64,000 nt of DNA, taken from the NCBI RefSeq assembly GCF_003334385.1, contig NZ_QOWN01000019.1. One strand, 5' to 3'. Positions 63,582 through 63,601 of this stretch are shown piece by piece; positions within the stretch are counted from its first letter, which is position 1, and each line of letters starts with the position of its first letter. Both the position numbers and the translations under genes were made by a program. Under the pieces are notes generated by a model that was not told the DNA's origin, ran no database searches, and saw only the letters and a list, made by a program, of their open reading frames with translations. The DNA is from Escherichia coli. Lineage in GTDB: Bacteria; Pseudomonadota; Gammaproteobacteria; Enterobacterales; Enterobacteriaceae.

Positions 63582-63601
63582 TTAGGATTTTGTTATTTAA
63601 A
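63582..63601 (+). promoter_or_regulatory. GAD box (GadE binding site) of the gadA promoter
   Basis: TTAGGATTTTGTTATTTAAA, ~80 bp upstream of gadA ATG. Confidence 0.75.

Follow-up and report, generated by a model that had tools for sequence, protein, structure and literature searches.

A 20-bp GAD box in the Escherichia coli gadA promoter, very probably the operator for RcsB acting together with GadE

The end of the Escherichia coli contig that we analyzed (64,000 nt, hereafter the window) raises the question of what the short AT-rich element upstream of the glutamate decarboxylase gene gadA is, and which protein or proteins use it. The locus is the E. coli yhjB/treF/ccp(yhjA)/gadA region, and in the RefSeq annotation of the matching K-12 region gadA lies between ccp and gadX. 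A further minus-strand ORF, at 57948-58919, we take to be yhjC from the K-12 gene order. The ORF opened by the ATG at 63681 is GadA-type, since it shares 101 of its 106 residues with K-12 GadB while differing from it at residues 3, 5, 6, 9 and 22. As K-12 gadX and gadW come after gadA, the window stops at the border of the acid fitness island. The 250 bp at 63471-63720, which cover the intergenic region together with the beginning of gadA, are 100% identical to K-12 MG1655 and to many other strains, and this stretch, with gadA as its annotated feature, is present in 5,413 of 5,426 complete E. coli genomes. The intergenic region between ccp and gadA measures 210 bp (63471-63680), and the intrinsic terminator of ccp bounds the gadA regulatory region on its upstream side.

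The sequence-only reading of this DNA had placed a 20-bp GAD box in an AT-rich gadA promoter and had described gadA as truncated by the window end. Each part of this description was borne out. The gene runs off the window after 320 nt, full-length K-12 gadA being 1401 nt; the AT content over 63471-63682 is 71.7%, compared to 48.6% for the whole window; and TTAGGATTTTGTTATTTAAA was found exactly at 63582-63601 on the plus strand, as the only copy in the window and with the published sequence and position. Allowing up to three mismatches to TTAGGATTTTGTTATTTAAA still returned this single match in the window, and none of 100 dinucleotide-preserving shuffles contained it, the chance expectation being 0. 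The element is an asymmetric 20-bp operator with an A+T content of 85%. Seo et al. (2015; PMC4918353) give TTAGGAttTTgTTATTTAAa as the characterised GadE site, and comparison with that report showed that TTAGGATTTTGTTATTTAAA has the published GAD box sequence; for the GAD box of K-12 gadA and gadBC, Castanie-Cornet et al. (2010; PMC2887963) cite Ma et al. (2003; Mol Microbiol 49:1309). We therefore conclude, at a probability of roughly 0.94, that 63582-63601 is the gadA GAD box, the 20-bp operator that is bound by GadE and unphosphorylated RcsB and that activates gadA; no observation in this analysis speaks against it. The sequence identity, the position, the footprint across paralogues and species and the population-wide conservation come from the present analysis, while protein binding, the heterodimer and the loss of activation on mutation are taken from the literature on the identical sequence.

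The geometry of the promoter was fixed by means of the primers gadAup and gadAdown, with which a fragment spanning -101 to +24 had been published (PMC2887963). These map to 63553-63572 and 63658-63677, respectively, giving a fragment of the expected 125 bp, and the two ends, taken independently, place the transcription start at the same nucleotide (Table 1). The GAD box has been described as centred 63 bp upstream and lying 16 bp upstream of the -35 element (PMC2887963), and the gap between box and -35 in the window is likewise 16 bp. The -10 hexamer matches TATAAT at three of six positions, and such a weak -10 fits an activator-dependent promoter. A sigma-70 consensus scan did not report the real gadA promoter (TTGCTT-17-TACTTT); the matches that it returned in the AT-rich region differ from the published promoter and were not used. 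A scan against Rfam gave no RNA family for the gadA promoter or 5' UTR.

Table 1. Features mapped in and around the gadA promoter; negative positions are relative to the transcription start.
Feature	Position	Strand	Basis and remarks
yhjC-named ORF	57948-58919	-	ORF list
yhjB	59367-59969	+	ORF; name from RefSeq annotation of the matching K-12 region
treF	60020-61669	-	ORF; name from RefSeq annotation of the matching K-12 region
ccp/yhjA	62073-63470	+	ORF; name from RefSeq annotation of the matching K-12 region
ccp (yhjA) intrinsic terminator	63478-63507	+	terminator scan: 13-pair stem followed by a T-run
GadX/GadW-motif-like AAGTCTGTTTTTAATATTAT	63523-63542	+	-131 to -112; motif-level call only
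RcsB + GadE DNase I footprint	63578-63604	.	-76 to -50; coordinates of PMC2887963 placed via +1 = 63654; encloses the box
GAD box, TTAGGATTTTGTTATTTAAA	63582-63601	+	-72 to -53, centre -62.5; operator for the activating RcsB/GadE heterodimer (literature)
RcsB-like half-site TAGGATTT	63583-63590	+	left half of the GAD box
GAD box/-35 linker, 16 bp	63602-63617	+	fixed length, free sequence
-35 hexamer TTGCTT	63618-63623	+	-36 to -31; 6/6 in K-12 gadB; 16 bp past the box
RcsB box GGATAAATCCTA	63631-63642	+	boundaries approximate; directly 5' of the -10, with a 2-nt overlap
-10 hexamer TACTTT	63641-63646	+	-13 to -8; 17-nt spacer from the -35; 6/6 in gadB
Transcription start (+1)	63654	+	both primer ends agree independently; 27 nt 5' of the ATG
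Shine-Dalgarno AAGGAG	63669-63674	+	read from the sequence; 6 nt before the ATG
gadA, 5' part (glutamate decarboxylase A)	63681-64000	+	106 codons + 2 nt; translation, RefSeq annotation

A motif comparison with the gadBC promoter had been proposed as a check on the assignment. The K-12 gadBC locus was taken by annotation and not by searching for the box, so that the comparison is unbiased. The gadB promoter contains a copy of the box that is identical at all 20 positions (3626-3645 of the K-12 gadBC sequence, L001, minus strand), and in both promoters the start of the box lies 99 bp from the ATG; the check was thus passed in sequence as well as in spacing. The flanks of the box have drifted apart, with only 20 of 60 positions identical over the 60 bp upstream and 2 of 16 in the downstream linker. 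Identity returns at the -35 TTGCTT and at the -10 TACTTT (6/6 each); the spacer between them is identical at 12 of 17 positions and includes the conserved stretch GATAAATCC, and 28 of 36 positions are identical from the -10 to the ATG, that is, in the 5' UTR. It could be argued that the 20/20 identity is a relic of duplication or gene conversion with no selected binding site behind it, given that the gadA and gadB coding sequences are nearly identical (the 101 of 106 N-terminal residues noted above) and that the proximal promoters are similar between the -10 and the ATG. However, the box is an island between diverged flanks, and a conversion tract coming from the coding regions would have included the linker; what is seen is thus a footprint of selection on discrete sites. 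Furthermore, the length of the linker is fixed while its sequence varies between species, and activation is lost when the box is point-mutated (PMC2887963). We regard a relic as extremely improbable.

The wider distribution of the element was surveyed by an exact-match scan for the 20-mer across approximately 100,000 species, each represented by one genome, which returned 11 loci: eight in Escherichia and three in non-Escherichia metagenome-assembled genomes (MAGs). The eight Escherichia loci come from E. coli-labelled genomes, E. albertii, E. whittamii and Escherichia sp. E1V33, corresponding to about five species-level genomes. Each of the eight boxes precedes a gadA- or gadB-type ATG by 99-100 bp. 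The invariance of the box itself is partly by construction in loci found by exact match. For E. albertii (L002) and E. whittamii (L011) the scan gave a gadA-type promoter only and no gadB-type copy, suggesting that the gadBC promoter is either absent from these species or carries a variant box. Further Escherichia species may have escaped the exact-match scan entirely. The three MAG copies, from Bacteroidales and Lentisphaeria, were considered as distant GAD boxes and rejected, as they are coding and have no gad gene downstream. They lie at 143-162 (minus strand; L009), 6379-6398 (minus strand; L010) and 4178-4197 (plus strand; L012) and read in frame as LGFCYL(K/N), which by eye looks like part of TPR/Sel1-like repeat proteins; they are not regulatory sites, the AT-rich 20-mer agreeing by chance with a common repeat motif.

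The eight Escherichia loci were aligned together with the window and K-12 gadB, giving 10 promoters. Their linkers vary in sequence and contain no indels. Conserved blocks of the alignment are TTGC, GAT(A/T)AATCCTAC, the T-run and the Shine-Dalgarno region, where TTAAGGAGTT is the same in all 10 promoters. The T-run between the -10 and +1 (approximately 63644-63649) has either 6 or 7 T, giving 99 or 100 bp from box to ATG (L002, L004 and L006). No other difference in length occurs from the GAD box to the start codon among the 10 promoters.

Conservation within the species was addressed with a 40-bp probe consisting of the box and 10 nt of flank on either side, which was searched against 5,426 E. 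coli genomes and is free of the exact-match bias. All 5,426 genomes were matched, at 10,809 places with a median of two per genome. The gadB promoter shares just the 20-bp box with this probe, and the second place in each genome is presumably a near-perfect match to the box only, like the one row inspected (H82; query 11-30, 100% identity). The variant strain APEC 16-1068, likewise free of that bias, has five intergenic substitutions, of which two are in the terminator loop, one is at 63546 and two are in the linker; the box, the -35, the RcsB box and the -10 carry none of the five. Six of the approximately 10,800 gad promoter or GAD box matches are on plasmid-typed records, and the 504-kb record NZ_JBYVFY010000003.1 has a gadB-type box match only; such records could be pieces of chromosome that were mis-typed, or gad loci that have truly been mobilised.

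As to which protein occupies the box, the suggestion that it is a GadE-bound site needs one refinement. GadE is present in the complex and is required for activation, but GadE alone does not bind (PMC2887963). In that study, purified GadE on its own gave neither a footprint nor a shift of the gadA promoter, and the region from -76 to -50 was protected only when RcsB and GadE were added together. Mixed-tag EMSAs indicated equimolar RcsB and GadE, which was read as a heterodimer, with an apparent Kd of approximately 10 nM. The M1 mutation, a G-to-C change of a conserved G of the box, abolished both the complex and the GadE-dependent activation in vivo. According to a review, the GadE-RcsB heterodimer acts independently of RcsB phosphorylation. 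ChIP-exo experiments gave the GadE motif TTARGAWWWWAAATA, described by the authors as "mostly consistent" with the known site, and the same study reports that GadE activates gadA more than 50-fold (PMC4918353).

The original model of 2003-2004, in which GadE binds and uses the box alone, as a homodimer without RcsB, draws on earlier reports of binding that PMC2887963 cites as its references 8, 21 and 22 and is echoed in PMC4918353, where the element is still called an "asymmetric GadE-binding site". However, MBP-GadE prepared without RcsB produced neither a shift nor a footprint at concentrations of up to 10-20 uM, the earlier reports of binding by GadE alone were put down to RcsB contamination, and rcsB is genetically essential for gadA/BC expression (PMC2887963). 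The box itself also speaks against a homodimer, as it is asymmetric where a palindrome would be looked for and its left half exactly mirrors a half-site of the RcsB box. We thus consider it very unlikely that GadE acts here by itself. The GAD box is a site for the RcsB/GadE heterodimer rather than for GadE only, which refines the earlier interpretation without refuting it.

The mirror relation can be stated precisely. TAGGATTT, at 63583-63590, is the perfect reverse complement of AAATCCTA, at 63635-63642 in the RcsB box, so that the two form an 8-nt inverted repeat with 100% complementarity, 44 nt apart. A resemblance of the left half of the GAD box to an RcsB half-site had been remarked upon previously (PMC2887963), and the inverted identity supports that remark. 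The mutations in that study did not assign the two partners to the two halves of the box; probably, the TAGGATTT half docks RcsB and the T/A-rich right half docks GadE. The RcsB box has been reported to be bound by RcsB alone, weakly and with low affinity, with a 23-bp footprint and a repressive outcome (PMC2887963). The gadB version has a C at the equivalent of 63631 and is otherwise identical to GGATAAATCCTA, in agreement with the single C-for-G difference at the left end described in the same study. Across the alignment, GATAAATCCTAC is kept in nine of the 10 promoters, while E. albertii has GATTAATCCTAC.

The centres of TAGGATTT and AAATCCTA are 52 bp apart, which is about five helical turns, and the spacing between them is free of indels in all 10 aligned Escherichia gad promoters. 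This suggests the possibility, which we hold to be improbable, that RcsB molecules at the two inverted half-sites contact each other in a small loop or a higher-order complex. Were such a contact to occur, it could explain the "complex III" of PMC2887963 and could aid the switch from activation to repression as RcsB levels rise.

Upstream of the box, a different set of regulators comes into consideration. AAGTCTGTTTTTAATATTAT is the only match in the window, with up to two mismatches allowed, to the GadW/X ChIP-exo motif AKGKCTGWTWTTWWYMYVAK (PMC4918353), from which it differs at two positions; 0.24 matches per window are expected by chance, and 22 of 100 shuffles gave at least one. The gadB promoter has a match to AKGKCTGWTWTTWWYMYVAK with one mismatch, at another distance from its box. 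At the level of the motif, a GadX/W site at 63523-63542 is therefore only suggestive. Just upstream of the GAD box there is an imperfect 27-nt inverted repeat (63519-63545 and 63551-63577; 74% complementary, 5-nt gap), in which AAAGTC(T)GTTTTT occurs twice and which overlaps the GadW/X-like sequence; this repeat may reflect paired GadX/GadW sites.

These elements bear on the idea that the box is mainly AT-rich DNA for H-NS nucleation, or a part of a GadX/GadW site, and not an RcsB/GadE operator. Its 85% A+T content, its position within the AT-rich stretch at 63471-63682, the GadX/W-like motif 59 bp upstream and the reports that both H-NS and GadX/GadW act at the gadA promoter (PMC2887963 and PMC4918353) would all be in keeping with this. 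Nevertheless, H-NS binding would not demand conservation that is base-exact at 20 of 20 positions beside AT-rich flanks that diverge freely, the match to the GadW/X motif falls outside the box, and the box is footprinted specifically by RcsB plus GadE (PMC2887963). This explanation is accordingly given next to no weight, although overlapping silencing by H-NS may operate alongside the operator role and not in its place.

Elsewhere in the window, matches at the Rfam gathering score were obtained for the cspA thermoregulator 5' UTR (11125-11552, minus strand; 500.8 bits), a sok-type antitoxin RNA (9299-9438, plus strand), the rdlD antitoxin RNA (31072-31137, minus strand), a tRNA (22749-22822, plus strand), naRNA4 (22919-22998, minus strand) and the ES036 sRNA (25234-25276, minus strand). 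These are expected K-12 features that are unrelated to the GAD box.

A mechanism for the operator that combines the published data with the layout in Table 1 would run as follows. GadE, the master activator of acid resistance, and unphosphorylated RcsB, both LuxR/FixJ-type proteins, would bind the box as a heterodimer. From -62.5, the heterodimer would activate the weak-10 promoter TTGCTT-17-TACTTT, and we infer that the complex would do so in contact with RNA polymerase. Glutamate decarboxylase would thereby be switched on for survival at a pH of approximately 2.5 or below. An excess of RcsB, or activated RcsB, would repress the gadA promoter through the second, low-affinity RcsB box that overlaps the -10, while GadX/GadW sites and H-NS would act further upstream. 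The GAD box is the key cis-element for the induction of glutamate-dependent acid resistance by GadE and RcsB, and it is this resistance that enables E. coli and Shigella to withstand stomach acid.

The gadA GAD box is an already known element, the reference K-12 one, which has been much characterised since 2001-2003. Compared with the K-12 gadA/gadBC GAD box as described in PMC2887963, the copy in the window has the same 20 bp, the same position and the same downstream gene, and shows no differences; it is that very element. Since the copy equals the K-12 reference in every respect, it brings no new biology, and its value lies in correct annotation.

The genome-wide GadE ChIP-exo motif TTARGAWWWWAAATA (PMC4918353) agrees with the box in part. 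The first 10 positions of that motif, TTARGAWWWW, match the box exactly, whereas its 3' part, AAATA, cannot be aligned directly to GTTAT of the gadA box. By itself, the 10-mer core is not specific: the window has two matches where 3.2 would be expected by chance. The other match, TTAGGATTAT at 9248-9257 on the plus strand, lies approximately 40 bp before the sok-type RNA and is very probably meaningless.

Among known systems, the RcsB box and the RcsAB box, operators for RcsB homodimers or RcsA/RcsB heterodimers, are also close to the GAD box. RcsB takes part in both, and in both it is joined by an auxiliary partner of the LuxR/FixJ type, as with RcsA, BglJ and MatA; moreover, TAGGATTT in the left half of the GAD box repeats, perfectly and in inverted orientation, the right half of this promoter's RcsB box. 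GTTATTTAAA, the right half of the GAD box, on the other hand, is not an RcsB half-site. The two elements also differ in their action, since the GAD box needs GadE, works independently of RcsB phosphorylation and activates, in contrast to the repression exerted at the RcsB box by the -10 (PMC2887963 and the review mentioned above).
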